From assembly GCA_031285625.1 (NCBI GenBank), contig JAITVV010000005.1, positions 1-17,055 of the forward strand: a stretch of 17,055 nt of DNA, in the 5' to 3' direction. Source of the DNA: Prevotella sp. Lineage in GTDB: Bacteria > Bacteroidota > Bacteroidia > Bacteroidales > Dysgonomonadaceae. The position numbers were made by a program, and so were the translations under genes. Below, one piece after another: positions 1 through 17,055 of the stretch. Each line of letters starts with the position of its first letter. Position 1 is the stretch's first letter. The notes beneath the pieces were generated by a model that worked only from the letters and a program-made list of their open reading frames with translations, had not been told where the DNA came from and did no database searches.

Positions 1-290
1 GGATGGTGCAGATAATATATAATCATTTAATTATGATACACATACAAGATTATTGCAAGTATGTTATTGCTCGAAAAGAACTACATAAAGAGATGGATAA
101 CGATACAAATCACAGATGGGTTTTCGTTCGGAGTTCGAAGACTCTTCCTTGTTTTTATAAATACACTGCTGTCACTTGAATATCGTTATTTTCCTGTCAT
201 TTCTTTATCTTTTCACCCCGTTTTTTTATTACTTTGCATTGAGAAACGGTTTTGATTATCTCATACACCTTTATGAAATTATATAAAACT

Positions 291-2003
291 ATGGATAATA
301 CTCGGGAATTATTATGCTATTCTATTTTTATATTGCTCGTATTCTGCGTTGTTTCGTGCAAAAAGACAGGCAATGCGGATAGGGTATTGACGACAGTAGA
401 AAATATAGTGGAACAATATCCTGATTCAGCACTGATTCTTCTTGATTCGATTTCCAATTCCAATAATTTAAGCGATAAGGAAGAGAATCTTTATCGGCTG
501 TTGCAAATTCAGGCAAAAGATAAAACCTACAAAGACATAACTTCCGATACGGTAATTTTTCAGGTAAGGGATTATTATAAAGAGAAAAATGATGCGGAGT
601 ATTTGGCTTTGGCTTCATTTTATTGTGGGCGAGTGCTGCAATATCAGCAGAAGGATACGCTTGCAATAAATGAGTATTTGCAAGCAGGAATATATGCCGA
701 ACGCACAGAAGATAACATGCTCAAAGGGTTGATAGAAAGTTCTATGGGAGCAATTTTTTCAAGTGAACTCGTCGAGGCGGAAGCAATCAAGCATTTTATG
801 AAAGCCAGCCACTATTTTCATAGAGCCAAGCACACTAAAAACGAAATTATCACTTATAATCAGATAGGTAATGCGTATTTAAAAGGGTCGAAGAATGACA
901 GTGCCTTCTATTATTATAACAAAGGACTTGAATTGGCTAAGGCCACCAATGACAGTTTAGAGATAGCAGCTCTCACACACTGTCTTGGCATTGCATACAG
1001 AGAAACACGTCAGTTTGACTTGGCGGAAAAATATATCAGGGAAGCTTCGAGATACACTAACAACAATGATGATGAAATAAAACAATATTTAAACCTGTCA
1101 AAAACTTTCTATGCAAAGAACGTGCTGGATTCGGCAAAAATATATATCAACAAGTCGTTATCTCTTTTGTCGGACAACGAGAATGCTTTTGTTGCAGCCG
1201 AAATTCATCTAACGCTTTCTGAAATATTGGAAAAACAATCCGACTTTAATCAATCGTTGGATTATTACAAACAATATACTACTTACTTTAAGAAAATTCT
1301 CAGTGAAAACACAGGTAAAGAGATAGCCGATCTTAAGGCAAAATACAATAATGAACGACTGCAAAACGAAAATGGCAGATTAAAAGTCCGTTCACTGCGA
1401 ATTATCTTATTCTCATCGGTTGCATTACTCGTGGGTTGTTTAATAATTTTGGGGTTCTACTTGAAGTCAGTACAACAAAAACGGATTGTACTGAAAAAAG
1501 AAAATGATTTATTGGAAAAAGAAAATGAACTGTTAGAAGCCCGAACAAGAATATCTCAATTAGTAGAGATGGCCGAAAGCTATAATAATAAAGTCGATTC
1601 GGACAGGAATCTGTTGCTGCACCATTTTGATATTTTAAAAAGAGTATCCTTGTTGAAGCAATACTTAAGAGAGGATGATGAGCAATCACAGCGTTTAGTC
1701 AAGAAATTCAACGATATTGTTTACGGACAGGAATCGATGAATTGGGAGCTGCTTTATCAGGATATGAATAGTATACACAATGGATTGTTTGACCGTTTGA
1801 AAGAACAATGTCCCGAACTCGATGAAAACGAATTCCGCATATGTTGTATGGCGTATGCCGGCTTTACCTGTTCCGAAACAGGTATTATTATAGAATTAAG
1901 TACTCATACGGTAGAAATGAAACGCTCTTCCATTCGAAAAAAATTGAGAATAGAGCCAAAAGGTAGTTTGCGAACTTATCTTACATCCCTGTTTGGCTCA
2001 TAA
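291..2003 (+). CDS. Membrane-spanning TPR-repeat sensor/transcriptional regulator with C-terminal LuxR/GerE-like HTH
   Basis: Lipoprotein-like signal (..ILLVFCVVSC), multiple TPR-like helices (e.g. YNQIGNAYLKGSKNDSAFYYYNKGL), one TM segment (IILFSSVALLVGCLIILGFYL), coiled coil, then the C-terminal HTH (PELDENEFRICCMAYAGFTCSETGIIIELSTHTVEMKRSSIRKKL). The track starts at TTG 252; ATG 291 (taaaactATG) gives a normal-length signal peptide, and ATG 273 is an alternative. Confidence 0.85.
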   Translation: MDNTRELLCYSIFILLVFCVVSCKKTGNADRVLTTVENIVEQYPDSALILLDSISNSNNLSDKEENLYRLLQIQAKDKTYKDITSDTVIFQVRDYYKEKNDAEYLALASFYCGRVLQYQQKDTLAINEYLQAGIYAERTEDNMLKGLIESSMGAIFSSELVEAEAIKHFMKASHYFHRAKHTKNEIITYNQIGNAYLKGSKNDSAFYYYNKGLELAKATNDSLEIAALTHCLGIAYRETRQFDLAEKYIREASRYTNNNDDEIKQYLNLSKTFYAKNVLDSAKIYINKSLSLLSDNENAFVAAEIHLTLSEILEKQSDFNQSLDYYKQYTTYFKKILSENTGKEIADLKAKYNNERLQNENGRLKVRSLRIILFSSVALLVGCLIILGFYLKSVQQKRIVLKKENDLLEKENELLEARTRISQLVEMAESYNNKVDSDRNLLLHHFDILKRVSLLKQYLREDDEQSQRLVKKFNDIVYGQESMNWELLYQDMNSIHNGLFDRLKEQCPELDENEFRICCMAYAGFTCSETGIIIELSTHTVEMKRSSIRKKLRIEPKGSLRTYLTSLFGS

Positions 2004-2007
2004 AAAA

Positions 2008-2101
2008 CCATACCCCTACCATATCGGCTATTTTTCAATCACCTATTAATCACCGATCTATCTATTTTCACTCCCCCAAAAAGCCATATCCCTACCATAC
2101 C
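2008..2101 (+). repeat. Two copies of the direct repeat CCATAYCCCTACCATAYC; probable activator binding sites
   Basis: CCATACCCCTACCATATC at 2008-2025 and CCATATCCCTACCATACC at 2084-2101, 76 bp apart. Each copy has an internal CCATA period of 11 bp. The second copy abuts the predicted -33 element. Confidence 0.75.
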
Positions 2102-2104
2102 CTA

Positions 2105-2135
2105 TTGTGACATATAAGTGCTGTTTATAAATTTG
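2105..2135 (+). promoter_or_regulatory. Bacteroidota sigma-A type promoter
   Basis: TTG (2105-2107), 20-nt spacer, TAAATTTG (2128-2135), matching the -33 TTTG / -7 TAnnTTTG consensus. It lies 33 nt before the ATG at 2169. Confidence 0.75.
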
Positions 2136-2168
2136 CCACATCATAACATTATAAACTAACAAAGAGTC

Positions 2169-2531
2169 ATGAAGAAGGTCTTTTTTCTATTATTAATTTT
2201 ATTATCCGCTCATGGAAATATGCTTTATGCAGATGAAAGTAAGAATGTTGAATTGGAAGGAGATTTACTATCTAACGGAACACGCTCCCTTTCCTCTCTT
2301 ATTTCAGCGGTTAGCTATTCGGATTATATAAAAGTAAACTTCGCAATTCCTTTGGATGAAATTTCTATCCGGATCTATGATGAGAGGAATGATATTGTAT
2401 ATGAAGATATGGCGGATATTTCTATTCAAAGCAGTGTAATCAGTACAGTGTTATTTGAAACAGGAACATATAGGATCGAATTTACAAATTCACAAGGCCG
2501 ACATTTAGAAGGAAGCTTTGTGATTAAATGA
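2169..2531 (+). CDS. DUF3244-like secreted small beta-sandwich protein
   Basis: Signal peptide MKKVFFLLLILLSAHG, and the pattern ISIRIYDE..IVYE...GTYRIEFTNSQGRHLEGSFVI typical of Bacteroides DUF3244 proteins, which often neighbour TPR-HTH regulators. Confidence 0.75.
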   Translation: MKKVFFLLLILLSAHGNMLYADESKNVELEGDLLSNGTRSLSSLISAVSYSDYIKVNFAIPLDEISIRIYDERNDIVYEDMADISIQSSVISTVLFETGTYRIEFTNSQGRHLEGSFVIK

Positions 2532-2570
2532 AAAGAACGATCCATCAACACTAACCTTCATAATCAGTTA

Positions 2571-2852
2571 ATGAAAAAGGATTTTGTTGTTGAAAATGAT
2601 TCATGCCTATATATCATAGGAGGGAAACATGAAAGTTTTGTTTTTCAAGCAAATAATATAGTCAAAGTGTGTAATATTTCGATAGACGAATGCTCGATGC
2701 TAATATGTAACAACATAGATTTCATTCGAATAAATAAGCATGTGATTATAAATACAAAATTTTTCAGGCAACTGAATAAAGGAAGAGAAATAGTGATGAA
2801 AAACGGTACGATATTCAAAGTATCACGCCGTTGTGTTTCATTATTTAAATAA
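2571..2852 (+). CDS. Stand-alone LytTR DNA-binding domain protein
   Basis: FIRINKHVIIN and IVMKNGTIFKVSRR match the LytTR motifs F.R.H.S.IVN and L.NG..L.VSR. No receiver domain; 93 aa. Confidence 0.75.
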   Translation: MKKDFVVENDSCLYIIGGKHESFVFQANNIVKVCNISIDECSMLICNNIDFIRINKHVIINTKFFRQLNKGREIVMKNGTIFKVSRRCVSLFK

Positions 2853-2931
2853 TCGGGAAACGTATGTACATACAATAACGGTGATGAGTATCCACCATTA
2901 GCTACTCAACATAATTTTTAATTTTACGATA

Positions 2932-3096
2932 ATGAAAGAAGTAAAATCAATTGAATTTTTGAACGAGATTGACGGACTTGAAAATGTAAGTCTTGACGAA
3001 GTAAAAGGTGGTATATCCTTAGGGTCTTACGCTGGCGGTTGTCCTTCAAATGACCACCAAGTCGTTCAACGCTCGAACGCAATAGCAGTATGCTAA
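2932..3096 (+). CDS. RiPP precursor peptide with double-glycine leader (54 aa, missing from the ORF track)
   Basis: Hand translation: MKEVKSIEFLNEIDGLENVSLDEVKGG|ISLGSYAGGCPSNDHQVVQRSNAIAVC*. The acidic 27-aa leader ends LENVSLDEVKGG. The gene lies directly upstream of the rSAM/SPASM gene and in a cluster with a C39 PCAT. Confidence 0.85.
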   Translation: MKEVKSIEFLNEIDGLENVSLDEVKGGISLGSYAGGCPSNDHQVVQRSNAIAVC

Positions 3097-3112
3097 TGCT
3101 TTGGTAGTGTAA

Positions 3113-3139
3113 AAAGGAGGGTAATTATTATCCTCCTTT
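3113..3139 (+). terminator. Stem-loop between precursor and maturase (partial terminator or mRNA stabiliser)
   Basis: AAAGGAGGGTAA-tta-TTATCCTCCTTT: 12-bp stem with one G:U pair, 16 nt after the precursor stop, and only a short U tail. Confidence 0.7.
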
Positions 3140-3218
3140 CAACATCCAACAATGATGAACTATTAAACAACTATTCTCTGAAGATGTATTTTTTTAAGTT
3201 ATATCAAATGTAAAAAAC

Positions 3219-4538
3219 ATGGAAACTAAAATATATTGGTCACAATTTAATCACATGTTCAATTCTGAAAAATATGGGCATATTCTTTATAATGCAGAAA
3301 CAAATGCTTTTGCTAACATCTCAATTGATTTATACAATTTGTTATTTGCCATAAGTAAAGGTGTAAAAGAGATAGAAGAATTGGATAATGCTACGATTGA
3401 TAATTTACTTCAAAGAAAGATTCTGGTAAAAGATAAGAATGATTATTTATATAGACGTCGGTTAAGGTATTATTTCCAAGCATTTGATACATCAAATTTA
3501 GGATTGGCCGTAGCTCCTACAACTGCATGTAATTTTATATGCCCGTACTGTTATGAAGATAATAAAGTTAATAAATACATGACAGAGGAAATAGAAGATC
3601 TCCTGTTAAAGTTTATCAGTGGGCATAGAAGAACTAATATTCTAAATTTAACGTGGTATGGTGGCGAGCCATTAATGGGGTTTAAATCTATACAAAGAAT
3701 TTTGGACGGATTAAAGAGAATAGATCATATCAAATTGGGTCTTCATAATATGCCTACAAATGGTTATTTGCTAACAAAAGAAGTCAGTCTATTTTTTAAA
3801 GAAAATCCAATGAATAGCATACAAGTGACCATAGATGGTGCAAAAGAACATCATGACAACTTAAGAATGCTTCCCGGTAATTTACCAACTTTTGATAAGA
3901 TCGTTTCGAACTTAGATACATTCATGGACTATAATCCTGATACACCTGTATTTATTAGAATGAATCTTTTAAATGACAATATTGACTCATATGGTAAAAT
4001 ACATCAGGAATTATCTTCGCATTGGAAAGGACGAGATGTATTAATATATCCGGCTTTTGTGAAAGATTTTAGCGATAGCTGCAAATCAAACTGTAACCTT
4101 GTAAGCAGGGAAGAAAAAATAGAGTTTTTTAAGGAGCTAAAAGATAAATATAAAATTGATGTACAATTTAAGCCGCTTAATTCCAGTACCGGATTATGTG
4201 GAGCCACTCATGTGAATTACTATGTAATAGGCCCTGAAGGTGAAATGTACAAATGTTGGAATGATCTTGGAGTGAAAGAGAAAATAATAGGATATATTGA
4301 TGGAAGAGAAAAAAACTATGATGTCTTAACTCGATATTTGGCCGGCCCAACGATTATGGATGATAAAGAATGTCAAGATTGTTCCATTATGCCCATATGT
4401 ACAGGCGGATGCTTATGGGTTAGACATAAGAATCTTTATGAAAATAAAGAACTTGATTATATGTGTTGTACAAGGAAAGATAATCTTGATAAGATTATAG
4501 AACTTCAATATGAAGAAACACTAAAAGCGTCATTATAA
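3219..4538 (+). CDS. Radical SAM/SPASM-domain peptide maturase
   Basis: CxxxCxxC (TACNFICPYC), WYGGEPL, QVTIDG, and SPASM cysteines (CGAT..GEMYKCW..ECQDCSIMPICTGGC..CC). The roughly 85-aa N-terminal extension is consistent with an RRE/PqqD-like leader-binding domain. Confidence 0.93.
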   Translation: METKIYWSQFNHMFNSEKYGHILYNAETNAFANISIDLYNLLFAISKGVKEIEELDNATIDNLLQRKILVKDKNDYLYRRRLRYYFQAFDTSNLGLAVAPTTACNFICPYCYEDNKVNKYMTEEIEDLLLKFISGHRRTNILNLTWYGGEPLMGFKSIQRILDGLKRIDHIKLGLHNMPTNGYLLTKEVSLFFKENPMNSIQVTIDGAKEHHDNLRMLPGNLPTFDKIVSNLDTFMDYNPDTPVFIRMNLLNDNIDSYGKIHQELSSHWKGRDVLIYPAFVKDFSDSCKSNCNLVSREEKIEFFKELKDKYKIDVQFKPLNSSTGLCGATHVNYYVIGPEGEMYKCWNDLGVKEKIIGYIDGREKNYDVLTRYLAGPTIMDDKECQDCSIMPICTGGCLWVRHKNLYENKELDYMCCTRKDNLDKIIELQYEETLKASL

Positions 4539-4559
4539 GAACTATAAAAAATATAAAGG

Positions 4560-6917
4560 ATGAGATCTATACTGCTTTTTTTTGTCATACTCTTATTTTC
4601 AATTACTCCGATTTTTGCACAAATAACCATCAAAGGTAAAGTAACTAATGAAAAGGCATTACCTGTAGATTATTTTACGATTGAGATACTTAATCGTATA
4701 GATTCATCTTTTGTAATGGGGGGAGCATTTGTCGATGGAGAATTTCAAATTGATGATATAAAAAATGAAAAATATATTTTCAAGTTCTCCAGTTTGGGGT
4801 ATTACGACCTAATAAAAATAGATAATGCTCAAACGATAAACAACGGAAACTTTCAGTTGATTGAAAAATCTATATCTCTTGACGAAGTGGTAGTAGTGTC
4901 AAGATTGCCTAAAGTTATTAATAAGGCGGATAAATATGTAGTGGAAGTTGAAAATACCTCTATTAGTGATGCCGGTAATGCTATCAATGCACTTAGCAGG
5001 ACACCTTTTGTCATAGTGGACAGGATAAATAATGAAGTTACAATAGCAGGAAAAGGAACAACATTAATATTGGTAAATGGCAGACGGATAACAAATCAGC
5101 AGGAGCTGGAAATGCTTAATTCACAAGATATTAAAGAAGTTGAAGTTATTGAAAATCCATCAGCCAAATATGAAGCTGAAGGCCACAGTGTTATTAATAT
5201 CATCACAAAGAAAAAAAGTGAACATGGAGTAAATATAAATCTTCAAACTATCTATACGAGAGGCAGGCATAATAGTGGTAAAACATTAGCAGGTTTCACA
5301 TATGCAAAGGAAAGGTTTGTTTTTTATACTCAATATGGTTATAATGCAGATAATAGTGAAGGATTTAATTCTTCTGATGAGAAATATGAAAAAGATGGTC
5401 GTTCTTTCATTATGAAACAAAAGAATCTCGATAATTTATACGAAACACGATTGAATGAATATTCATTGGGAATTAATTACGACCTCACAAAAAATCAAAC
5501 TATTGGAGTGAAATATGACGGATATTATGGAAACATTTATTTCAACACCATAAATAAAATGGATGTAATCTTCAATGGTAACGAAATCCCGACAGAATTA
5601 TCTTACAAAAATGGCAAGAATAAAATTCAAAAAGATGGGATAAACTTAAATTACAATTTTAGCAACAATCTATTTGAAGCATCCTTAATAGGCGATTATA
5701 CAAAATCTAAAGGGAAATCCGGTTTTAATATTGATGAAACGGATAATGATAATAGTTATCACAATTTTAAATTGTATGATTGGCAGGCAGATTATGACTT
5801 GTATTCAGTCCAATTTGATAGCAGGATACCATTAGAAGCGATAGGAGCATCAATAGAAGGAGGAGGCAGATATTCTTATGTTAAGAGCAATAATAACAGT
5901 AATTTTTTTGATAAGGCAGGTAATAGCTGGATATTGAATGATGAATTTAGTAGTCAAGTAGATTTTAATGAAAGTATTTTGGGTACATATGCTTTATTGA
6001 GTGGAAAAATAAAAGATAGAACACAATATTCAATTGGTTTGCGATATGAATATTCAGAAAATAAGAACAAATGGGATGTTAATAATGACTCTATAAATAA
6101 AAATCATACCAGCAATTTTTTTCCGAGCTTACTTATAACACATAGGCTCAAAGATGATCTGTTACTGAGATTATCTTTCTCAAAGCGTATCTCCCGTCCT
6201 TCTTATGAAGTTTTAAATAATACGGTACAATATATTAATTCTTACTCCAATCAACAGGGTAATCCGTATCTTAAATCAGCAATCTATAACACAATTTCAT
6301 TTTCATCTCAAATAAAAAGGATCAACGCTTCTATTAATGCTTCATATATTCAAAACCCGAATGATTTATTGTATTTAAACGATCCAAACCAAATTGAAAG
6401 ATATACATGTATGCGAATAAATACGGAAAACAGGTGGTCGTTTGCCTTTAATCTGAGTTCTTCTTTCTCATATAAAAAATGGAGTATTCAACCCTTTTTT
6501 AGTCTGACATATATGAAAAGAGCAATTATAGAAGACGGCATAAAATATACAACAGATTATCCCGGTATTTATTTAAGCTTGAGAAACAGTTTAAATCTTT
6601 ATAAGAGCCTTGATATGGATTTTGACATGACATATAATAAGCCATCCCATAGCTTTAAAACATTTAACGACCAATATATTTTCAATCTATCTCTCCGACA
6701 AAAATTATTTAAGGATCAATTAACCATACAATTAACGGGTAATTATACACCGACTAAATGGGAACAAAAATTAGACTACAGCTATAAGTATATTGATTTT
6801 GTATGGGATGGAGATGATAGAAAACAGTTAATATTAAGTGTAAAATATAATTTTAATACAGCTAAAAAACAGTTCAAATCGAAGGCGTCCAATATGGAAG
6901 AGCTTAATAGAATGTAA
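4560..6917 (+). CDS. TonB-dependent-receptor-like outer membrane beta-barrel protein
   Basis: Signal peptide, carboxypeptidase-regulatory-like N-domain (ITIKGKV..), LDEVVV, plug motif (IKEVEVIENPSAKYEAEGHSVINIITKK), SKRISRPSY / GNPYLK, and a terminal strand LSVKYNF with a short tail. Confidence 0.88.
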   Translation: MRSILLFFVILLFSITPIFAQITIKGKVTNEKALPVDYFTIEILNRIDSSFVMGGAFVDGEFQIDDIKNEKYIFKFSSLGYYDLIKIDNAQTINNGNFQLIEKSISLDEVVVVSRLPKVINKADKYVVEVENTSISDAGNAINALSRTPFVIVDRINNEVTIAGKGTTLILVNGRRITNQQELEMLNSQDIKEVEVIENPSAKYEAEGHSVINIITKKKSEHGVNINLQTIYTRGRHNSGKTLAGFTYAKERFVFYTQYGYNADNSEGFNSSDEKYEKDGRSFIMKQKNLDNLYETRLNEYSLGINYDLTKNQTIGVKYDGYYGNIYFNTINKMDVIFNGNEIPTELSYKNGKNKIQKDGINLNYNFSNNLFEASLIGDYTKSKGKSGFNIDETDNDNSYHNFKLYDWQADYDLYSVQFDSRIPLEAIGASIEGGGRYSYVKSNNNSNFFDKAGNSWILNDEFSSQVDFNESILGTYALLSGKIKDRTQYSIGLRYEYSENKNKWDVNNDSINKNHTSNFFPSLLITHRLKDDLLLRLSFSKRISRPSYEVLNNTVQYINSYSNQQGNPYLKSAIYNTISFSSQIKRINASINASYIQNPNDLLYLNDPNQIERYTCMRINTENRWSFAFNLSSSFSYKKWSIQPFFSLTYMKRAIIEDGIKYTTDYPGIYLSLRNSLNLYKSLDMDFDMTYNKPSHSFKTFNDQYIFNLSLRQKLFKDQLTIQLTGNYTPTKWEQKLDYSYKYIDFVWDGDDRKQLILSVKYNFNTAKKQFKSKASNMEELNRM

Positions 6918-6927
6918 AAAACAACTC

Positions 6928-9126
6928 ATGAAATTCCCTTTTTACAAGCAGCTTGATGCAATGGATTGTGGGCCGTCATGCCTACGAATGATATCTTCGT
7001 ATTACGGAAAAAAATACTCGTTAAATATGTTCCGTGAACTCTGCTATCAAAGTAAAGATGGTGTTTCATTACAAAATATTAGTTATGCAGCAGAAAAAAT
7101 CGGATTTAAAACAATCGGTGGAAAATTCACTCTTGATATTTTAGTTAATAAAGCACCTCTGCCATGTATTATTTTTTGGGAGCAAAGACATTTTGTTATT
7201 GTATATGATATAAAAAAAAGAGGAAAGGATTATGTCTTCCTGATAGCAGATCCGGGAAAAGGAATAGTCAAATATTCATTAAAAGAATTTCTACCCCATT
7301 GGAGCAATAGTGACTCTATATTAGAAGCAAGAGGAATTGGACTCTTTTTAGAACCAACCGATGAGTTTAGAAATGAAAATAATGAGCAATACATTGAAAA
7401 GAGCACATTCGGATTTTTGACGGGATATTTTTTGAAATACAAAAAATATTTTGGGCAATTGATTTTAGGTCTAATTTTCGGGAGTCTTATTCTGCTAATA
7501 CTACCTTTTCTAACTCAATCAATTGTAGATACAGGTATATCTTCTAAAGATATAAGTTTTATCGTATTGATATTAATAGCCCAATTTACACTATTATTGA
7601 GCAGTACGTTTATTGATTTATTAAGAAGAAGAGTGCTTCTCCATATTAGCACCAGAATAAATATATCACTTATCTCTGATTTCTTTATTAAATTAATGAA
7701 ATTGCCCATGTCTTTCTTTGATACAAAACAAATTGGAGATTTGATTGAACGTGTTGATGATCATGATAGAGTACAGCGATTTCTTACGACCCAGAGCTTA
7801 GGCTTACTATTTTCCGTTTTTAATATCGCTATTTTCGGAATAGTTTTACTGATCTACAACTTGCATATCTTTTTGATATTCCTTATAGGAAGTGTCTTCT
7901 ATTGTATTTGGGTAATACTATTTTTAAACAAAAGAAGATTGCTGGATTATAGAAGATTTGAACAGCAAGGGATAAACAAAGGAAAGGTGTATCAATTGCT
8001 GAATGGCATGCAAGAAATTAAGCAACAAGGATGTGAACAACGGAAGAGATGGGAATGGGAAGAAACACAAGCGGATTTATTCAGTATTGACAACAAATTA
8101 CTATCCTTGCAACAAACACAAAGAGTCGGGTCTATTTTTATATCTGAATTTAGAAATATTCTAATAACATTTACTGCCGCAACTGCTGTAATAACAGGTG
8201 ATATGACACTCGGTATGATGCTTGCTGTTCAATATATCATTGGACAGTTGAATAGTCCGGTAGATCAGGTAATGAATTTTGTATATGATTATCAGGATAT
8301 CAGTATTAGTTTTGAAAGGATGCAAGAAATACATGAAAAAACAAACGAAGAATCTTGTAAAAATGAGATTGTATCCTTGCCTTTAGAAAAGTCGATAAAA
8401 ATAAACAACTTATCTTTTCAGTATGAAGGGCCGACCAGCCCTTTTGTCTTATCGGATATTAATTTAGAAATTCCGGAGGGTAAGGTTACTGCTATTGTAG
8501 GTGCAAGCGGAAGTGGAAAAACTACGCTCTTAAAGTTACTCTTGGGATATTACACACCGATTAAAGGTGATATTTTTATTGGAGATTTACCTCTTTCTCA
8601 ATTTAGTAAAAGATTTTGGCGTGTTCAATGTGGTGCAGTTCTCCAAGATGGATACATCTTTTCTGACACAATAGCAAGGAATATTGCCGTTTCAGACGAT
8701 ACACCGGAAAAAGAAAAACTAATGAAGGCGGTATCTGTGGCAAATATAAAAGAATTCATTCACAAACTCCCATTGTCATTCAATACAATAATAGGACAAG
8801 ATGGGCAGAACCTAAGTCAAGGTCAAAAGCAAAGAATTTTAATATCACGGGCCGTATACAAAGATTCTCCATTTTTATTTTTTGACGAAGCGACAAATTC
8901 TTTGGATGCTAATAATGAAAAAGTAATATTGGAAAATCTGTCTAAGTTTTATAAAGGAAAAACTGTTATAGTTGTCGCTCACCGACTAAGTACAGTTATG
9001 AATGCTGATAAAATAGTCGTTATAAACAATGGTAAAATAGTGGAAGTAGGTACTCATGAAGAATTGACAGCATTGCAGAAGGAATACTTTCATCTTGTCA
9101 AAAATCAGTTGGAGTTAGGTAATTAA
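6928..9126 (+). CDS. Peptidase-containing ABC transporter (C39 PCAT, double-glycine leader exporter)
   Basis: QLDAMDCGPSCL (catalytic Cys), WEQRHFV (His), IADP (Asp), TM domain, Walker A GASGSGKTT, signature LSQGQKQR, Walker B FLFFDEATNSLD, and AHRLST. Confidence 0.96.
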   Translation: MKFPFYKQLDAMDCGPSCLRMISSYYGKKYSLNMFRELCYQSKDGVSLQNISYAAEKIGFKTIGGKFTLDILVNKAPLPCIIFWEQRHFVIVYDIKKRGKDYVFLIADPGKGIVKYSLKEFLPHWSNSDSILEARGIGLFLEPTDEFRNENNEQYIEKSTFGFLTGYFLKYKKYFGQLILGLIFGSLILLILPFLTQSIVDTGISSKDISFIVLILIAQFTLLLSSTFIDLLRRRVLLHISTRINISLISDFFIKLMKLPMSFFDTKQIGDLIERVDDHDRVQRFLTTQSLGLLFSVFNIAIFGIVLLIYNLHIFLIFLIGSVFYCIWVILFLNKRRLLDYRRFEQQGINKGKVYQLLNGMQEIKQQGCEQRKRWEWEETQADLFSIDNKLLSLQQTQRVGSIFISEFRNILITFTAATAVITGDMTLGMMLAVQYIIGQLNSPVDQVMNFVYDYQDISISFERMQEIHEKTNEESCKNEIVSLPLEKSIKINNLSFQYEGPTSPFVLSDINLEIPEGKVTAIVGASGSGKTTLLKLLLGYYTPIKGDIFIGDLPLSQFSKRFWRVQCGAVLQDGYIFSDTIARNIAVSDDTPEKEKLMKAVSVANIKEFIHKLPLSFNTIIGQDGQNLSQGQKQRILISRAVYKDSPFLFFDEATNSLDANNEKVILENLSKFYKGKTVIVVAHRLSTVMNADKIVVINNGKIVEVGTHEELTALQKEYFHLVKNQLELGN

Positions 9127-9129
9127 GTT

Positions 9130-9807
9130 ATGAAAGCGGAAGAAATAGAATTGCAACTAAGAAGCGAAAAAGTTCGAAATATAGTTGGAGAGATTCCCTC
9201 AACCATAATGAGATATGGTTTATATATCATTATTATGTTTGTTTCTGTGATTTTCTTTTGTTTATCTATCATTCCAATTCGTGAACAGTATACAACTGAT
9301 ATAGTAATAAAATCAATACCTGAAAATGATATAATAACCTCCCCTATTGATGGACAAATTAATTATTCGATTGATGACAATCGTAATATAAACATAAATG
9401 AGGAAATAGGGCGGATTATCAACAATGATACAACATGTATAATTTATAGTAAAATATCCGGAATGGTAATTCGGAATCAGAAAAATAAAACGCATATAAC
9501 TCAAGATGATATTTTATACGAAATAAAACCGAACTATACTCAATACTTGTATGGCGAAATCTTGGTGCCAATTGATTTTATTAATAAGGACTATAATTCT
9601 TTTGATGTTGAGATTGTTACTCGTGAAGGTAATACAGTAAAAGGGGAAATAACACATATATATGAGATATTGGTAAACGAAGGAAGTGATCAATCGTATA
9701 AAGCGGACATATTAATTGACAGTAAGGCTTCTTTGCAAATAAATCTTATTTGTAAGGCTATCGTTACAATAAAGAGTGAGAGATTGATAAACAAAATATT
9801 CAGATGA
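9130..9807 (+). CDS. Short HlyD-like membrane fusion/adaptor protein
   Basis: N-terminal LRSEKVRNIVGEIP plus a TM helix, typical of Bacteroidota PCAT-associated HlyD proteins; lipoyl-like half motifs (ITSPIDGQI, IYSKISGMV). Starts 3 nt after the PCAT stop. Confidence 0.72.
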   Translation: MKAEEIELQLRSEKVRNIVGEIPSTIMRYGLYIIIMFVSVIFFCLSIIPIREQYTTDIVIKSIPENDIITSPIDGQINYSIDDNRNININEEIGRIINNDTTCIIYSKISGMVIRNQKNKTHITQDDILYEIKPNYTQYLYGEILVPIDFINKDYNSFDVEIVTREGNTVKGEITHIYEILVNEGSDQSYKADILIDSKASLQINLICKAIVTIKSERLINKIFR

Positions 9808-9851
9808 TGGCTTTTATATTTAGTAACCGTATGATTAAAAAAGGCATTAAC

Positions 9852-10415
9852 ATGAAGTATAATCTAAAGTATCCAACGTTGTTTCTTTTCTTATTTCTAT
9901 CTATAAGTAGCATCATGGCTCAAGTAGATTATATAGAAAAGAGAAACAATGTAGGCGATATTCCATTTAATCCGGACACAGATGATTCTTCGTTTGAACT
10001 GATAGACGAAAATAATATATTACCGTATAATATGGTATGTGGTTTTCTTATCGAAGGTGAAAAATATAGGGTTGTGGATTATTTTAATGAGAAATTCAAA
10101 TCTGATACCATTATAGGGGCTAACGGATATATAACGATACGATTTATTGTAAATTATAAAGGAAAAACAGATCGGTTTAGGGTTTATGAAATGGACAATG
10201 AATATAGACAAATTAAATTCCCCGAAAACATAACACAATCTCTTTTGGAGTTAACAAAAAAAATAGACCGATGGATTACCTCATTGGATTATAAATTAGA
10301 CCGTTACAATTGTATAGAGATAATGGATAATGGAAATAAAAAATATTTATATGATTACTATCAATATATCTTATTCAAAATCAAAGATGGACAAATTGAA
10401 ACGATTCTACCTTAA
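9852..10415 (+). CDS. Exported hypothetical protein with a TonB C-terminal-like segment
   Basis: Starting at ATG 9852 gives a clean signal peptide (MKYNLKYPTLFLFLFLSISSIMA|Q); the track starts at 9804. GYITIRFIVNYKGKTDRFRV resembles the TonB_C pattern G.V.V.F.V...G.V. Confidence 0.6.
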   Translation: MKYNLKYPTLFLFLFLSISSIMAQVDYIEKRNNVGDIPFNPDTDDSSFELIDENNILPYNMVCGFLIEGEKYRVVDYFNEKFKSDTIIGANGYITIRFIVNYKGKTDRFRVYEMDNEYRQIKFPENITQSLLELTKKIDRWITSLDYKLDRYNCIEIMDNGNKKYLYDYYQYILFKIKDGQIETILP

Positions 10416-11238
10416 ATCAATATTGTTGTGTACTTTTTTATTCTGGTTCGAAGGACAAACTTTCGGACAAACAAATTGCCAGGCTTTATTTGAGAAAGAT
10501 TCTCCGGAATATTGCGCATGTATGTTGATATATGGAGGTGATGCCATCAAAGGAAAGGCTCGCTATCAAGGTTCAAAAGAGTCACAGGCTTTATGTGATT
10601 CTGCTATAATGCTTTTTCCTTCGTTTGCGGATTCTTATTATATAAAAGCCATTCCATTTTTAAAAAGAGGCGAATTCGGTTTATGGAAAACAATTATTGA
10701 TAAGGCGGTAGAATATGATTCTCTATTATATTTGGGATATAGAGGAGGTGCACAATTTATGTTTTTAAGAAATTATGAAGGAGCAATAAAAGATATTGAA
10801 ACCTTAAAGTCCATATATAAATCGGATATAGGCGCCATCTATAATGGTGAATACCATTTGGAAATAATAAGGTCTTTATCTTATAAAGGGTTAGGAGATA
10901 CCATTCAAGCTATAAAAATTTTAGAGGATCATATAATTGAATATGAGGCAGGTCTTTATGGATATTATCATTTAGGAGTAATGTACTTTGAAGAAAATAG
11001 ATATTTAGATGCTATAAAAACATTCTTAAAGCAATCCGCATCTTACGATTTTGCAGATCTTAATTATTTCATTGGACTGTCTTATAAAAATATAGGAGAA
11101 GATGATAAATATAAAAAGGCGATTCAAAAGGCTTATGATTTATATCTGGAGGGTCGAATGCTTTGCGGTAATGGAAGTTTTATGGACTATCCGGATAAAG
11201 TTTATTTGAAGCAAATCAAGAAAGCTATGATTCAGTAG
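10387..11238 (+). CDS. Exported TPR-repeat protein with Cys-containing N-terminus
   Basis: Probable start ATG 10387 (track gives 10330), signal peptide ..ILLCTFLFWFEGQTFG|Q, TPR-like repeats (YYHLGVMYFEENRYLDAIKTF; NYFIGLSYKNIGE). Overlaps the upstream gene. Confidence 0.7.
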   Translation: MDKLKRFYLKSILLCTFLFWFEGQTFGQTNCQALFEKDSPEYCACMLIYGGDAIKGKARYQGSKESQALCDSAIMLFPSFADSYYIKAIPFLKRGEFGLWKTIIDKAVEYDSLLYLGYRGGAQFMFLRNYEGAIKDIETLKSIYKSDIGAIYNGEYHLEIIRSLSYKGLGDTIQAIKILEDHIIEYEAGLYGYYHLGVMYFEENRYLDAIKTFLKQSASYDFADLNYFIGLSYKNIGEDDKYKKAIQKAYDLYLEGRMLCGNGSFMDYPDKVYLKQIKKAMIQ

Positions 11239-11448
11239 TTAAGAACTTATTGAGTTACACAAACCTTGTAAGAAAAGAGTTTTTGATGAAATATTCTATG
11301 GATGAGGACGAAAGCTGTATCCCTTTTATGAAAACTTTACAGGTATTATAATAGGCTTTAGAATGACAGGATAAAAAGAGAAATGCCCCAATGTAGAGGA
11401 GTCACCTACCTCTCCCGTTCAATTCCAATTAAGAAACTTCAAAAAATA

Positions 11449-11486
11449 AGTTTTCGGCTATCAAGCTGAAAACTGTTTTCTTTTTT
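11449..11486 (+). terminator. Intrinsic terminator-like hairpin just upstream of rteC
   Basis: AGTTTTCGGCT-atca-AGCTGAAAACT (11 bp, one G:U pair) followed by GTTTTCTTTTTT. Confidence 0.55.
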
Positions 11487-11510
11487 ATAAACCAATTAAA
11501 ATTACATTTT

Positions 11511-12183
11511 ATGAAAAGGTTCATTTCAACGAAGTTTATCCATACATTACGGGAAGCTTCACAAAAAGGCATCGATGCAGATGTCGAAGTATTGGAAAAC
11601 AGATACGAGGAGTTCGTCCGACTCTTGTTCTCTCAGTGTACTATCCTATCCGACAGGGCGGCGTGCTATAACACATTAGTTTATACCCACGCCGAACTTG
11701 CAGGTTTGACAGTGGTATCGGGAAAAAAATGCAGCTTATCTTAGGAAAGCTCTCGAACTTATAGAGTCCGAATTAGAACTACTCAAATTAAAGATTCGAC
11801 ATCCGGAACAATTTACTGCGTCGTCCGCCTCTCTGCCTTTGCCCGAAAAATGTCCAAAACAAACAGAAAAAACCAAGGATTCGGATTTTCAGTTGGAATG
11901 GACGGATGATGTCATCAAGCTGCTGGAGCTGGCATTATCTGTTCACAGAGCACGGTCAATCAATCATGGCAAAATATCTATTACGGATGTCGTGAACTTC
12001 TTTTTCAAGCAGTTTGGCCTGAAGCCCGGTAATTTCTTTTCTACCTATGGTGTCATGCGCACCCGAGCCGGAAGCCGTACCAAATATTTAGATGAACTGA
12101 AAGCGGGATTGGAGGAGAAAATGGATGAGGATGACAGAAAAGAGGAGGTACAAAAGAACGATGTAAGGAAAGGACGCAGGTAA
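11511..12183 (+). CDS. rteC: RteC-family regulator of conjugative-transposon excision/transfer, split by a +1 frameshift at about 11720-11730 (recoded gene or pseudogene)
   Basis: The 3' ORF has the RteC-like pattern LEWT..LLEL..SINHG..I..FF..F..Y..MRTR..SRTKYLDEL...M. Its frame is open from 11710 and reads NAAYLRKALELIESELELLKLKIRHPEQF upstream of the track start. Removing one A from the A7 run joins both ORFs into 223 aa. Confidence 0.78.
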
Positions 12184-12200
12184 ATGAGGCTTTTCTAAAA

Positions 12201-12234
12201 GAGGGAGGAGATTCCGGTTGAGATCTCCTCTCTT
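12201..12234. terminator. Probable bidirectional terminator between convergent rteC and PIN genes
   Basis: GAGGAGAT (12205-12212) pairs with ATCTCCTC (12223-12230), extendable with G:U pairs; there is an A run before and T-rich sequence after. Confidence 0.55.
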
Positions 12235-12311
12235 TGCCTTTTATTTCTGTTGCAATAGATGTGCCGGTTATTGCAATATCATCTCCATGAGTTTGATTGA
12301 AAAAGGACAAC

Positions 12312-12818
12312 TTATTTCCACTTTTTTAAGCGAATGCCCATTTCTCTCACAAGTTCGGCATTATTTTGATAGACTATATTTGTTCGTATCAGAAATTCCA
12401 ATTTAGAAGCGGCGTCCAATGGTGACAGAGAATCACATTCTACTAATCTATCGAATATCCAAAGCATTCCATGATATTCGATAGAGCTTTTCTTAGCACA
12501 AGTCCTCACAGCCTTATCGCTACTTAAAACCATCGCACCTATTTTTTCAGCAAGGAATAATACTGTCTTGTCATTTTCGGATAATGCTTTGGGATAATTT
12601 TTCTCTTGCATTTTTATTCTATCCTCTGCCGGTAGATTATGAATGGTTAATTTCCCAACAGAGTGAAATGCGGATAAAATATCTTGCTGTTGAGGATATA
12701 ATTCATTAAAAACATCCAAAGAAGTGTGTATCTCCATATCCAAAGAAAATAGGAGATTGGTTAGTTTCAGGTTATGCAAGTCTATAAAAATGCACGCATC
12801 CGTAATAGCGATTCTCAT
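12312..12818 (-). CDS. PIN-like domain protein (putative ribonuclease toxin)
   Basis: N-terminal IAITDACIFIDL, VFNEL, LSENDK and LSSDK supply the PIN-type acidic residues. ATGA overlap with the upstream peptidase gene. Confidence 0.78.
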   Translation of the reverse strand: MRIAITDACIFIDLHNLKLTNLLFSLDMEIHTSLDVFNELYPQQQDILSAFHSVGKLTIHNLPAEDRIKMQEKNYPKALSENDKTVLFLAEKIGAMVLSSDKAVRTCAKKSSIEYHGMLWIFDRLVECDSLSPLDAASKLEFLIRTNIVYQNNAELVREMGIRLKKWK

Positions 12819-13882
12819 TGCACTGTAGTGATTTGTTTATGAAAATCTATCAGAGATTGGTTGTTTAATACGGCAGCCTTATTCATAGATATGAGTTCTT
12901 CTGCTAATGCCCTAAATAACAACTGGGTAAAGCGATTTGATTCTTCCAGCCCGGTGTATTGTACAGGTTCTATGATTTTCCAATCATTGTGCAGAATTAT
13001 ATATACTAATTGATTCAGATGAGTTTCTGAAATAATATTGAGATCTTTACACCTGTACATTAAAGCCTGAATTGAAATTCCATATTGCTTTTTCAACTCT
13101 CCCAATTCTTGGATAAACAGTTTTTTTCGGGCTATTCCCAATTCCTTTTGAATGGCCGCTTTAGGAATCAACATGGCTGCTGCAAACTGATTACAATATT
13201 TTTCTTTCATTTTATCGGAAAGTTCCCCTAACGGAAGTAGCAAATGGCCTAATTCGTGTAATACCGTAAACCGGATTCTGTCTGCTGATTTTAACTTATT
13301 CTCGTTTATTACAATAACGGGAATCGTTTGATTGAGCCAAGTTTGCATGCCGTCAAAACTGTCTTCCGAATGAACTAAAACAACTTTGATGTGATTATCT
13401 TCCAATAATTCAATCGTGTTGTAAATAGGGTCTAAACCCAAATTCCAAGAATTTCTAACTTGCAATGCGGCTTCTTCAATAGCTTCAATAGCTTCAATAG
13501 AGGAAATTACGGGGAATTCTTTCAGAGGGTTTTCAAAATTGGTTCCAATTCCCAGTATTTCTTCCAACTCCAGATAGCGGGACAATACATCCTTAGTGTG
13601 TTCGACGATCTTATTCTGTTCTTTTACGGGTAGTTTTGTCAGCTTTCTAAACTCCAAATTCCCTAACTCAACTTTTGTATCCCTGAAAAAGAAGTCGGGC
13701 TGCACATGAAGTGCCTTACTTAAATGGCTGATCATCTCACTGTCCGGGATGACCTCTCCTTTTTCATATTTATGTAGTGCTTGACGGGATATTTTGTTAC
13801 CGAGAGCATCCGCTAAATCTTGTAATGAGAATCCATTTAAGATACGGGCAGATTTAAACCGTTCCGAAAATAACATATTCAT
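12815..13882 (-). CDS. XRE-family HTH fused to an ImmA/IrrE-family Zn metallopeptidase (COG2856-like)
   Basis: ERFKSARILNGFSLQDLA..ISRQALHKYEKG (XRE HTH), RIRFTVLHELGH (HExxH), EKYCNQFAAAMLIP, and YGISIQALMYR. Confidence 0.92.
   Translation of the reverse strand: MNMLFSERFKSARILNGFSLQDLADALGNKISRQALHKYEKGEVIPDSEMISHLSKALHVQPDFFFRDTKVELGNLEFRKLTKLPVKEQNKIVEHTKDVLSRYLELEEILGIGTNFENPLKEFPVISSIEAIEAIEEAALQVRNSWNLGLDPIYNTIELLEDNHIKVVLVHSEDSFDGMQTWLNQTIPVIVINENKLKSADRIRFTVLHELGHLLLPLGELSDKMKEKYCNQFAAAMLIPKAAIQKELGIARKKLFIQELGELKKQYGISIQALMYRCKDLNIISETHLNQLVYIILHNDWKIIEPVQYTGLEESNRFTQLLFRALAEELISMNKAAVLNNQSLIDFHKQITTVQ
13474..13500. repeat. 9-bp tandem repeat x3 within the HTH-peptidase gene
   Basis: CTTCAATAG at 13474, 13483 and 13492; encodes IEAIEAIE on the minus strand. 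Confidence 0.85.
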
Positions 13883-13954
13883 GATAGTTCCTTCCTTTAT
13901 TCTTTATATTATTCAAGACAGTCTAATGTAATAACAACGATTGCCTGTATTTGG

Positions 13955-13989
13955 TTGACAAAGATATGAATTTATTTTAGATTTGTCAA
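13955..13989. promoter_or_regulatory. Overlapping divergent Bacteroidota promoters forming the palindrome TTGACAAA-N19-TTTGTCAA
   Basis: Plus strand: TTG 13955-57, N20, TAGATTTG 13978-85. Minus strand: TTG (complement of 13987-89), N20, TATCTTTG (complement of 13959-66). Confidence 0.75.
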
Positions 13990-14057
13990 TCTGTCATAGG
14001 ATTTTTTTTCTGTCAGAATACGGATATGACAAGACTGACAATGTGTCTTAAAAAGCA

Positions 14058-14104
14058 ATCTGGTTGACAATTTAATATATTGGTATATTATTTGTCAACC
14101 AGAT
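14058..14104. promoter_or_regulatory. Long palindrome, putative operator upstream of CBASS
   Basis: Perfect 13-bp arms ATCTGGTTGACAA / TTGTCAACCAGAT with an inner TAATATA-ttgg-TATATTA. TTGACA-N23-TGTCAA spacing is identical to the 13955-13989 copy. Confidence 0.75.
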
Positions 14105-14153
14105 ATATAAAGAATATCTTTATGAATTATAAAAATAAATCATTGATAATAAG

Positions 14154-15272
14154 ATGAGCGATACAAAAATAAGTCCGAAGAACCAAAATCTCCTATGGGC
14201 AATTTCTGGTGGAAGATGTGAATATGCAGGATGCAATAAAATTTTGCATACAGACATTCTGACCAACAAAAAGCGTAATAGTGCCTACATTGCCCATATC
14301 GTTGGTGATAAACCCACCGGGCCGAGAGGCGATGAAGAGCGATCGAAGTTATTGGCAAATGATATCAATAACTTAATGCTACTTTGCGATACACACCACA
14401 GAATGATAGATGACGAGATTATATATACAGAAACTTGCCTTCTTGAAATGAAGCGGCAGCATGAAGAACGTATCAGACGAATAACTGATATAGCACCTAA
14501 TATGTCCAGTGAAATAATCTTATATGGGGCGAATATAGGAATTAACAATGCTCCCTTGTCCTACCAGTCAGCTTGTGAAGCTTTGTTACATGATTATTAT
14601 CCGGCAAGCGACAGTGCCATAGAATTGAGATTGAAGAATGTGCCATTTACGGATGATACCGATACCTATTGGAAAATGGAAGAGGCTAATCTTTGTGAAC
14701 AATTTAAGCTACAGATAAAGCCTCGATTGATGCAAGGAAATACCGACCATTATTCTGTATTCGCACTTGCACCGCAACCGTTACTTGTAAAATTGGGAGT
14801 TTTGTTGAATGATTTGAATAACGTGAAAGTATATCAAAAACACAGGGAACCTTCCACATGGAAGTGGCAAACAACTTCTCCTGATATTGAATATATCCTT
14901 CGTGAGCCTGCTGATAAGACGAAAGTTCCTGTACTCGTATTTAGTTTGAGTGCGACAGTAACATACGATAGAATACAAAAAGCGTTGGGGGGTAATGCAA
15001 GTATATGGGAAATCACAATAAGCGGTACTCCCCATAACGATGTTTTAAAAACAGAAGTATTGTTGTCTGATTTTCGTTGTATCGTCAGAAATACTTTTGA
15101 CAAAATAAAATCTCATCATGGTTGTACGGAATTACATATTTTTCCGGCGATGCCTGTTTCTGCATCCGTTGAATTGGGTAGAGTCTGGATGCCCAAAGTT
15201 GATATGCCTATGGTAATATATGATGCGAACAAGGCAAAGAACGATTTTTACAAGACAATAACAATAAGATAA
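14154..15272 (+). CDS. cap5: CBASS effector, HNH endonuclease-SAVED (Cap5-like)
   Basis: GRCEYAGC..IAHIV..GPRG..NLMLLCDTHHRMID (Zn-binding HNH) and a C-terminal SAVED domain (FALAPQPLLVKLG, VYQKHR, LHIFPAMPVSASVELGR). Adjacent to the CD-NTase. Confidence 0.9.
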   Translation: MSDTKISPKNQNLLWAISGGRCEYAGCNKILHTDILTNKKRNSAYIAHIVGDKPTGPRGDEERSKLLANDINNLMLLCDTHHRMIDDEIIYTETCLLEMKRQHEERIRRITDIAPNMSSEIILYGANIGINNAPLSYQSACEALLHDYYPASDSAIELRLKNVPFTDDTDTYWKMEEANLCEQFKLQIKPRLMQGNTDHYSVFALAPQPLLVKLGVLLNDLNNVKVYQKHREPSTWKWQTTSPDIEYILREPADKTKVPVLVFSLSATVTYDRIQKALGGNASIWEITISGTPHNDVLKTEVLLSDFRCIVRNTFDKIKSHHGCTELHIFPAMPVSASVELGRVWMPKVDMPMVIYDANKAKNDFYKTITIR

Positions 15273-15278
15273 ATAGAT

Positions 15279-16905: not shown

Positions 16906-16954
16906 TGAAATAATTAAAACGATAGAAATATGAACAATGTCTTATTCCAAAATA

Positions 16955-16992
16955 GGTTGACAGATATTGATTCATAATAATTTATCTGTCAG
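16955..16992. promoter_or_regulatory. Third, diverged copy of the GGTTGACA...TGTCA inverted repeat
   Basis: TGACAGATA (16958-66) / TATCTGTCA (16983-91); TTGACA-N24-TGTCAG. Preceded by ACAATGTCTTA, resembling ACAATGTGTCTTA before the 14058 copy. Confidence 0.55.
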
Positions 16993-17055
16993 TAAGAAAA
17001 GTATTAAACCCAAGATAGGTTTACACCGGTTTTGGCAAAGGTATCTTTTTCTGCG

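Follow-up and report, generated by a model that had tools for sequence, protein, structure and literature searches.

The closest described relatives of the system analysed here come from two reports on Bacteroidales. Clark, Bushin and Seyedsayamdost (2022; PMC9389541) presented an uncharacterised cluster of Parabacteroides distasonis in which a two-component regulator and a radical S-adenosylmethionine (rSAM) enzyme accompany a 61-mer precursor, along with a peptidase ABC transporter and a TonB-dependent receptor; according to the authors, its product is not known. Fernandez-Cantos et al. (2023; PMC10352776) described Bacteroidales clusters with genes for rSAM enzymes, peptidase-containing ABC transporters (PCATs), membrane-fusion proteins (MFPs), outer-membrane proteins (OMPs) and tetratricopeptide repeat (TPR) proteins together with precursors carrying a double-glycine (GG) motif; among them is BGC2 of Phocaeicola vulgatus, a cluster abundant in metagenomes from human faeces, and these authors, too, state that no product is known. 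The present analysis concerns a 54-codon open reading frame (ORF) at positions 2932-3096 of the plus strand of a 17,055-nucleotide stretch of a Prevotella sp. contig (JAITVV010000005.1, positions 1 to 17,055), the whole of which is called the window. By text description, the P. distasonis cluster and BGC2 contain the same gene set as this locus, namely one or more regulators, a single rSAM enzyme with a short precursor of the GG type, a PCAT and a TonB-dependent receptor or OMP, and BGC2 additionally has the MFP and the TPR protein; the P. distasonis precursor is a 61-mer as opposed to the 54-mer found here. The cluster type is already known, although uncharacterised, and the precursor family is new. 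We consider it about an even chance that the ORF encodes a ribosomally synthesised and post-translationally modified peptide (RiPP) that receives one small thioether ring from Cys37, is cut at Gly27 and is exported.

The 54-residue translation begins with a leader of residues 1-27 (2932..3012) that ends in Gly26-Gly27, followed by a core of residues 28-54 (3013..3096, stop codon included) in which a conserved block at residues 30-43 precedes a variable tail at residues 44-54. The core has Cys at core positions 10 (Cys37) and 27, one Tyr at core position 6 and one His at core position 15, and the second GG of the precursor lies at core positions 8-9, immediately before the first of these Cys. 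This translation agrees exactly with an earlier note, made from the sequence alone, that described a 27-residue GG leader and a 27-residue core with two Cys, one Tyr and one His. A 54-residue ORF is weak evidence by itself, because 72 ORFs of at least 40 residues are present in the AT-rich window. The precursor ORF is nevertheless a true gene, as manifested by the conservation of its frame, length and motif, by a third-position bias in its differences, by the breakage of the opposite frame in relatives and by the lower conservation of its flanks. The frame is open at an identical length of 54 codons in the related contigs L013 and L024, with differences by codon position of 13/4/18 (window versus L013) and 15/9/24 (window versus L024). 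Nucleotide identity over the ORF amounts to 130/165 and 117/165, respectively, and the 150 nt upstream of it reach 95/166 and 92/169. In both relatives, stop codons break up the minus-strand ORF at 2924-3082 that overlaps the precursor. Among 5.8 billion protein clusters, a word-indexed search returned four homologues of 54-56 residues with 72-78% identity, of which P0004 is annotated at NCBI as a hypothetical protein. In a leader-pattern scan, the precursor was the only small ORF of the GG-leader type in the whole window. The G+C content of the ORF is 40%, and that of the remaining cassette (3219-11238) is 30-33%.

The family to which this peptide belongs was gathered from genome contigs and from 15 billion proteins. 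Among 1.84 billion representative proteins, a profile search yielded nine matches at E 0.001 or better, six of them short peptides and three long repeat proteins. Two of the latter, P0009 (a 197-residue tandem repeat) and P0013 (890 residues, leucine-rich-repeat-like), were discarded as spurious on inspection of their sequences, and P0006 (4753 residues, 16 matching stretches) was discarded only by analogy with them. Further members were obtained by a second indexed search with an 11-sequence alignment and a cluster look-up, and one peptide was read from contig L014, so that the family comprises 19 complete distinct sequences. The 47-residue P0019, which shares the leader and has no core, was treated as truncated or frameshifted and excluded from the motif counts. 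All 19 members carry the GG leader, in which L16, G26 and G27 are invariant (19/19 rows of alignment A4) and I7, F9, V19 and L21 are nearly so (11-sequence alignment A2). Hydrophobic residues V24, L21, L16 and I13 occupy positions -4, -7, -12 and -15 from the predicted cut, which are significant positions for C39 peptidases.

The family core block reads [L/V]-x-[S/D]-Y-x-x-G-C-x3-[D/E/H]-H-[Q/M]. Tyr33, Gly36, Cys37 and His42 are invariant in 11/11 sequences of A2, in 18/18 complete rows of A4 and in 19/19 members overall, and Y-x-x-G-C is thus present in all 19. The motif that the earlier note had mentioned as recurring in short Bacteroidales peptides, SYAxGC, is therefore real, although its description of this peptide as a GG-leader version of such a family does not hold, since every member has the GG leader and the peptide belongs to the family itself. 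At position 41 (Cys+4) there is Asp in ten members, Glu in three and His in six, the last group having Asp at Cys-3 or Cys-5; Cys-X3-Asp/Glu is accordingly found in 13/19, including the window peptide (C37...D41; C-P-S-N-D). Residue 43 is Gln or Met, and beyond it the tail varies in both sequence and length. Only 4/19 members have the C-terminal Cys, which indicates that the family has one essential Cys and makes a scheme that relies on two Cys unlikely. The net charge of the cores ranges from -5 to +1 and does not exceed 0 in 17 of the 18 that were listed, and in 10 of those 18 the residue at Tyr+2 is Gly. No Pfam or NCBIfam model matches the precursor, and no leader or bacteriocin model of NCBIfam reaches E 0.1 or better, which bears out the claim that the core corresponds to no characterised RiPP family. 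No description of the family was found in the literature search either, the supplementary lists of PMC10352776 and of PMC10288494 (3,421 predicted sacti/ranthipeptide clusters) falling outside the comparison.

The precursor family is rare. In a sample of 401 genomes from the same order, a strong match to the one-Cys Y-x-x-G-C-x4-H family came from the window's own genome and no other, the weaker matches in G318, G130 and G203 being other GG-leader peptides or chance hits, and a metagenome scan with a 5-sequence precursor alignment retrieved only L024. The named sources of members are a metagenome-assembled genome (MAG) of Tannerellaceae and a Prolixibacteraceae record. L014, a contig of 4439 bases that carries a family precursor and an rSAM gene whose product is 65% identical to that of the window, is labelled as part of a Chromatiaceae MAG; this label is likely a binning error, because the other relatives with a name all belong to Bacteroidia. 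The one strong DNA match came from a metagenome run of termite gut, possibly the window's own source and hence not an independent observation. In L027, positions 1462-1641 encode a GG-leader peptide whose core includes K-Y-D-S-G-C-G-H-T-D, which is similar to the Y-x-x-G-C block and matches the profile weakly (E 0.002); the next ORF there (392 residues) does not look like an rSAM enzyme, and no rSAM gene follows the peptide within 3 kb.

Downstream of the precursor, positions 3219..4538 (+) encode an rSAM/SPASM peptide maturase (Pfam Radical_SAM 3.9e-13; SPASM domain TIGR04085, 50.7 bits against a cut-off of 27). Its CX3CX2C motif (C104, C108, C111) is invariant in 13/13 aligned sequences, as are seven Cys of the C-terminal SPASM region, at residues 327, 346, 385, 388, 394, 398 and 416. 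In the AlphaFold2 model of 439 residues (pLDDT 86), residues 11-88 fold into three strands and then three helices, in the manner of a RiPP recognition element (RRE)-like domain, and leader binding is predicted for them. The best NCBIfam models are Clo7bot (7e-61; 206 bits against a cut-off of 600), TIGR04463 (1.8e-57; 195 against 525), CefB (1.9e-50; 172 against 600), PapB (2.4e-35; 122 against 340) and SCIFF ScfB (6.6e-26; 91 against 425); scores of 130 against 400 and 93 against 500 were obtained for the geopeptide and CcpM models. The enzyme is consequently a member of no curated maturase family. It also stays below the cut-offs of TIGR04148 (49.4 bits against 300) and of the cyclophane maturase models YhhB (58.9 against 445) and AmcB (51.7 against 425). 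A complex prediction that combined rSAM and precursor alignments with three 4Fe-4S clusters and SAM scored 0.30 against a mark of 0.32 and speaks neither for nor against binding.

Genomic context around family members was available for four loci, the window, L013, L014 and L024, and in all four an orthologous rSAM gene (65-84% protein identity) starts 60-125 nt after the precursor. Conservation beside rSAM homologues, which the earlier note had posed as a test, is therefore borne out, and with it the proposal of a RiPP precursor that serves the adjacent lone rSAM/SPASM enzyme. It is this adjacency, together with the RRE-like domain and the fact that the window has no second ORF with a GG leader, that leads us to pair precursor and enzyme. 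Pfam and NCBIfam scans of the cluster recognised no second modifying enzyme and no second rSAM-like gene, in line with the suggestion that the rSAM protein is the only modifying enzyme of the cluster.

A plausible route to the product can be drawn from these elements. The N-terminal RRE-like domain of the enzyme would bind the 27-residue double-glycine leader, and cleavage of SAM would generate a 5'-deoxyadenosyl radical that takes a hydrogen from a residue near the single conserved Cys. The Cys37 sulfur, positioned on an auxiliary Fe-S cluster, would then bond that carbon and close a small thioether ring within the conserved block S-Y-A-G-G-C-P-S-N-D-H-Q. A thioether from Cys37 is suggested by the invariance of this Cys, by the presence of Cys in every substrate seen beside enzymes of the clade and by the nearest relatives of the enzyme. 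The candidate acceptors rank as Asp41 first, in a Cys-X3-Asp arrangement like that of PapB substrates, then His42 at Cys+5 and then Tyr33 at Cys-4; known thioether maturases bridge both the +5 and the -4 spacing. Cleavage by C39 domains after GG and subsequent export are standard for leaders of this kind, and the C39 domain of the PCAT would cut after Gly27 and the 27-residue product would be exported with the help of the HlyD-like protein and probably also of the TonB-receptor-like barrel. PapB joins Cys to Asp or Glu where the spacing is Cys-X3-Asp/Glu, and it also accepts Cys-Xn-Asp with n = 0-6 (PMC9413430); in PapB and Tte1186 the substrate Cys or SeCys is bound to an auxiliary cluster before the C-S bond forms (PMC10177961).

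The export genes lie directly behind the enzyme on the same strand. Positions 4560..6917 encode a TonB-dependent-receptor-like outer-membrane beta-barrel composed of CarboxypepD_reg, Plug and barrel regions (Pfam OMP_b-brl_3 1.1e-51, TonB_dep_Rec_b-barrel 2.9e-08, Plug 1.3e-05). A barrel gene follows the rSAM gene in L013, L024 and L029 as well, and L030 has a 790-residue ORF there, matched by position only. The PCAT is encoded at 6928..9126 (+) and contains C39 peptidase (residues 1 to about 130), permease and ATPase parts (Pfam Peptidase_C39 4.1e-30, ABC_membrane 4e-26, ABC_tran 6.7e-28; NCBIfam bacteriocin_ABC 4e-110), with visible N-terminal motifs ...DCGPSC... and ...RHFVIV..., which we take to hold the catalytic Cys and His. 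It is followed at 9130..9807 (+) by a short HlyD-like MFP of 225 residues with a weak match to Pfam HlyD_3 (0.0051); a syntenic homologue of 255 residues in L029 matches the same model at 1.7e-07, and ORFs of 244-255 residues come after the PCAT in L029 and L030. The order rSAM, barrel, PCAT, HlyD-like is kept in these two distant relatives. Two further plus-strand ORFs, one of 203 residues and no family in the family scans (9804..10415) and one of 302 residues with TPR (10330..11238), are of uncertain membership and lie outside the conserved cassette, because in neither L029 nor L030 is there a plus-strand ORF of at least 110 residues after the HlyD-like gene.

Upstream of the precursor, and also on the plus strand, lie two candidate regulators and a gene of the DUF3244 family. 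The first candidate, at 252..2003, encodes a TPR protein (Pfam TPR_12 3.8e-08) whose C-terminal end is like sigma-70 region 4 or an HTH (helix-turn-helix) domain; it matches the NCBIfam BT3442 family (1.2e-43; 149.7 bits, below the cut-off of 940) and, at residues 451-566, sigma70-ECF (6e-05), and a TPR protein of similar size occupies the matching relative place in L013 and L030. The DUF3244 protein, with a hydrophobic N-terminus, is encoded at 2169..2531 (Pfam 2.3e-10); its gene is found upstream in L013 too, and a 129-residue ORF sits at that place in L003 and L030, by position only. The second candidate, at 2571..2852, is a stand-alone mini-protein of 93 residues of the LytTR DNA-binding type (Pfam LytTR 2.6e-05, 24.8 bits against a cut-off of 22.6), and the gene immediately before the precursor encodes a counterpart in L003 (93 residues, similar by eye) and L024 (72 residues, LytTR 5e-05). 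Taken together, the TPR protein, DUF3244, the barrel and the PCAT are retained in L013, and the barrel and the LytTR mini-protein in L024.

A hairpin between the precursor gene and the enzyme genes is the usual arrangement in operons of this type, and here a stem-loop at 3101..3149 (+), with an inner 12-bp stem at 3113-3139, starts a few bases 3' of the precursor stop. Its folding energy is -20.8 kcal/mol (z -5.88, 0/200 shuffles as good), and hairpins at the matching place in L013, L024 and L014 give z values of -3.48, -3.70 and -6.75, so that the element follows the precursor stop in 4/4 loci, even though the stem sequence in L014 is unrelated to that of the window. Because the hairpin has no T run, the consensus terminator scan missed it; the promoter and terminator scan of the window yielded no signal above shuffles, and Rfam gave no match in the window. 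The hairpin likely stabilises or attenuates the transcript between the precursor and the enzyme genes.

The wider clade of the enzyme shows which peptides this machinery accompanies. Relatives with a profile E of 1e-60 or better occur in 22/401 sampled Bacteroidales genomes and 21/236 genera, and the spread of the clade is patchy. A GG-leader peptide ORF with a Cys in the core lies beside the enzyme at 24/36 loci (11/16 plus 13/20). Apart from the four loci of the family, the cores of the clade are unrelated to that of the window and hold one to eight Cys, nearly all of them two or more. Since these unrelated cores stand next to clade enzymes, the system is a Bacteroidales cassette that swaps its cargo, and the one-Cys cargo of the window is an unusual and rare variant of it. 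In L031 (494-1075) and in L033 (minus strand, 544-996 reoriented), two or three tandem GG-leader precursors adjoin enzyme relatives, the three of L031 having two-Cys cores with DD or DxD between the Cys. A second recurrent type of precursor, in whose cores C-x-[KR]-G-Y-S is followed further on by C-x-C-G-Y, is found by enzymes of the same clade in L006 (2832-2999, minus strand), L044 (145-351) and L046 (932-1135, reoriented); that of L006 is downstream of the enzyme and convergent.

Beyond the cassette, a 114-residue ORF at 11839-12183 (+) matches only the C-terminal part of RteC (positions 127-219 of 219; Pfam 2.4e-21), a regulator of Bacteroides conjugative transposons. This apparent RteC remnant suggests that the RiPP cassette and the defence genes behind it are located on an integrated mobile element or next to one. 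In L029 (genome G017), whose enzyme is 47% identical, the flanks at 1-5400 and 14000-18001 contain ORFs that by eye resemble mobile-element genes, including one for a P-loop ParA-like protein and others that look like mobilisation genes. The defence genes of the window form a CBASS (cyclic-oligonucleotide-based antiphage signalling)-type operon at 14154-16905 (+), in which a CD-NTase cyclase (2.2e-138) and an E2-like protein (2.6e-49) are encoded together with an effector, an HNH-SAVED endonuclease (PADLOC Effector 3.5e-154; Pfam SAVED 1.1e-45). Divergently oriented upstream of it, within 12312-13882 (-), are a fused HTH and M78 peptidase regulator (RmrA 4e-50, with capP and capH matches) and a 168-residue protein that matches PDC-S70.

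Several observations weigh against a single thioether ring from Cys37 in an exported and antagonistic product. With a best score of 206 bits against a cut-off of 600, the chemistry of the enzyme is not transferable by family membership. The occurrence of His instead of Asp41 in 6/19 members weakens a strict PapB-like Cys-Asp link, and such a ring leaves the invariant Tyr and His unexplained. The one-Cys cargo is atypical within the enzyme clade, and 12/36 clade loci have no neighbouring precursor by leader pattern, although several of them have less than 450 nt of upstream sequence. On the export side, the barrel has a plug and resembles an importer more than a TolC-like exit duct, and the Pfam and NCBIfam scans of the cluster recognised no immunity gene.

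These last two points are central to the alternative that survives best, in which biosynthesis proceeds as proposed and the product is a cell-cell signal or a peptide that binds metal through Cys, His, Tyr and Asp. The barrel would then re-import or sense the product, with feedback on the TPR-HTH and LytTR regulators. We regard this as possible, if on the unlikely side. It is in keeping with the CarboxypepD_reg, Plug and TonB-receptor signatures of a barrel that accompanies the enzyme also in L013, L024 and L029, with two syntenic regulator-type genes upstream, with cores that are neutral to acidic and with the lack of a recognised immunity gene; pheromone sensing by TPR proteins in clusters of this sort is raised in PMC10352776. 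On the other side, the same machinery carries diverse cores, its clade is patchy and mobile-element genes lie nearby (the RteC fragment in the window and the mobilisation genes judged by eye in L029), all of which are usual features of bacteriocin cassettes, and the same article, citing Coyne 2019, states that Bacteroidetocins have no dedicated immunity. None of these counter-points is decisive. As to the role of the product, which would be neutral to acidic, we lean slightly towards a narrow-spectrum antagonistic peptide, with signalling close behind, because the cassette swaps its cargo, is patchily distributed and lies near mobile-element genes.

A second alternative retains the pairing of precursor and enzyme and replaces the thioether by other rSAM chemistry, such as a C-C, C-N or C-O crosslink via Tyr33 and/or His42, an epimerisation or an undescribed Cys-His or Cys-Tyr link. 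Tyr33 and His42 are as invariant as Cys37 (19/19), the enzyme falls below the cut-off of every curated thioether maturase, the list of fold matches includes SuiB, EpeE and anSME, which have a similar fold and other chemistry, and DynA and cyclophane maturases appear as weak NCBIfam matches. Nonetheless, maturases of Cys-containing peptides or of thioethers account for all of the strongest matches by model, by sequence and by fold, and each substrate found beside clade enzymes has a core Cys. A Tyr cyclophane, one of the chemistries raised in the earlier note, fits poorly: Gly two residues after Tyr in 10/18 listed cores makes a three-residue cyclophane from Tyr impossible in those, and the YhhB and AmcB scores (59 and 52 bits) are far below their cut-offs. 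We therefore judge non-thioether chemistry to be unlikely. It is likewise doubtful, though conceivable, that the Tyr-x-x-Gly-Cys-x4-His signature with its one Cys marks an undescribed rSAM crosslink or a metal-binding or signalling peptide that is re-imported through the barrel.

Two further readings fare much worse. That the precursor stays unmodified and is a class II double-glycine bacteriocin or pheromone, only cut and exported by the PCAT while the rSAM enzyme acts elsewhere, is very unlikely: leader and PCAT would suffice for export, but the rSAM gene follows immediately in 4/4 loci, its product has an N-terminal RRE-like domain like that of CteB, and the window offers it no other GG-leader substrate. 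That the ORF is a chance or decaying frame without expression is barely credible, for despite its shortness and the abundance of comparable frames in AT-rich DNA, its frame, length and motif persist across distinct contigs, the differences favour third positions, relatives have a broken frame on the opposite strand and conservation is lower in the flanks.

Bacteroidales are dominant in many gut communities, and to our knowledge no rSAM-modified peptide from this order has been characterised. The single-ring RiPP proposed here would provide a simple entry point to the clade, with one conserved Cys, a conserved block of 14 residues and a single enzyme, and it bears as well on the part played by a TonB-receptor-like protein in a peptide-export operon. 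Because enzyme relatives occur in about 5% of the sampled Bacteroidales genomes (22/401), the answer would carry over to many clusters. Should the bond be an ordinary Cys-Asp or Cys-X thioether, the outcome would be a routine new ranthipeptide or sactipeptide family; a novel crosslink or re-import, if true, would bring new chemistry or an export-plus-re-import logic to an unstudied and widespread Bacteroidales cassette.

Among characterised systems, several share single elements with this locus. Class II bacteriocin and RiPP GG peptides with C39 PCATs have in common with it the GG at -2/-1, the hydrophobic leader pattern and the PCAT in the operon; here, however, conservation includes the core, which has an rSAM enzyme as its partner. 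Haft's GG-Bacteroidales rSAM system is a poor counterpart, since TIGR04148 stays below its cut-off, no peptide model matches and there is no pseudo-rSAM partner, and the three-residue cyclophane RiPPs (YhhB/AmcB) are distant as well, the window having Y-A-G after Tyr33. Clo7bot (TIGR04334), TIGR04463 and CefB (NF038107), the top models over nearly the full length of the enzyme, are by their NCBIfam names maturases of Cys-containing peptides; apart from the fact that the enzyme scores far below their equivalog cut-offs, they add no known chemistry, because the literature search found no paper on Clo7bot.

Two systems of known chemistry stand nearer. CteB, the maturase of the SCIFF ranthipeptide thermocellin, joins Cys to a Thr five residues downstream, in precursors with six Cys and no GG/PCAT export; the peptide of the window has one conserved Cys and, at +5, His and not Thr. 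CteB is the closest solved relative of the enzyme by sequence (1.2e-16; PDB 5wgg, 5why) and matches its fold over 449 columns, N-terminal domain included (Foldseek E 7e-19), with the CX3CX2C motif, the SPASM domain and its seven conserved Cys in common, even though identity is 19-21% and the SCIFF maturase model stays far below its cut-off. The PapB/freyrasin system resembles the window in the Cys-X3-Asp of the core, with Asp or Glu at +4 in 13/19 family members, and in the E value of the PapB model; it differs in the score of that model, in having six motifs where there is one here and in the His at +4 of six members. With rSAM/SPASM thioether RiPPs as a whole, the likeness extends, as judged from sequence and from the structural model, to the CX3CX2C motif, the SPASM Cys, the putative RRE-like domain and the conserved core Cys.

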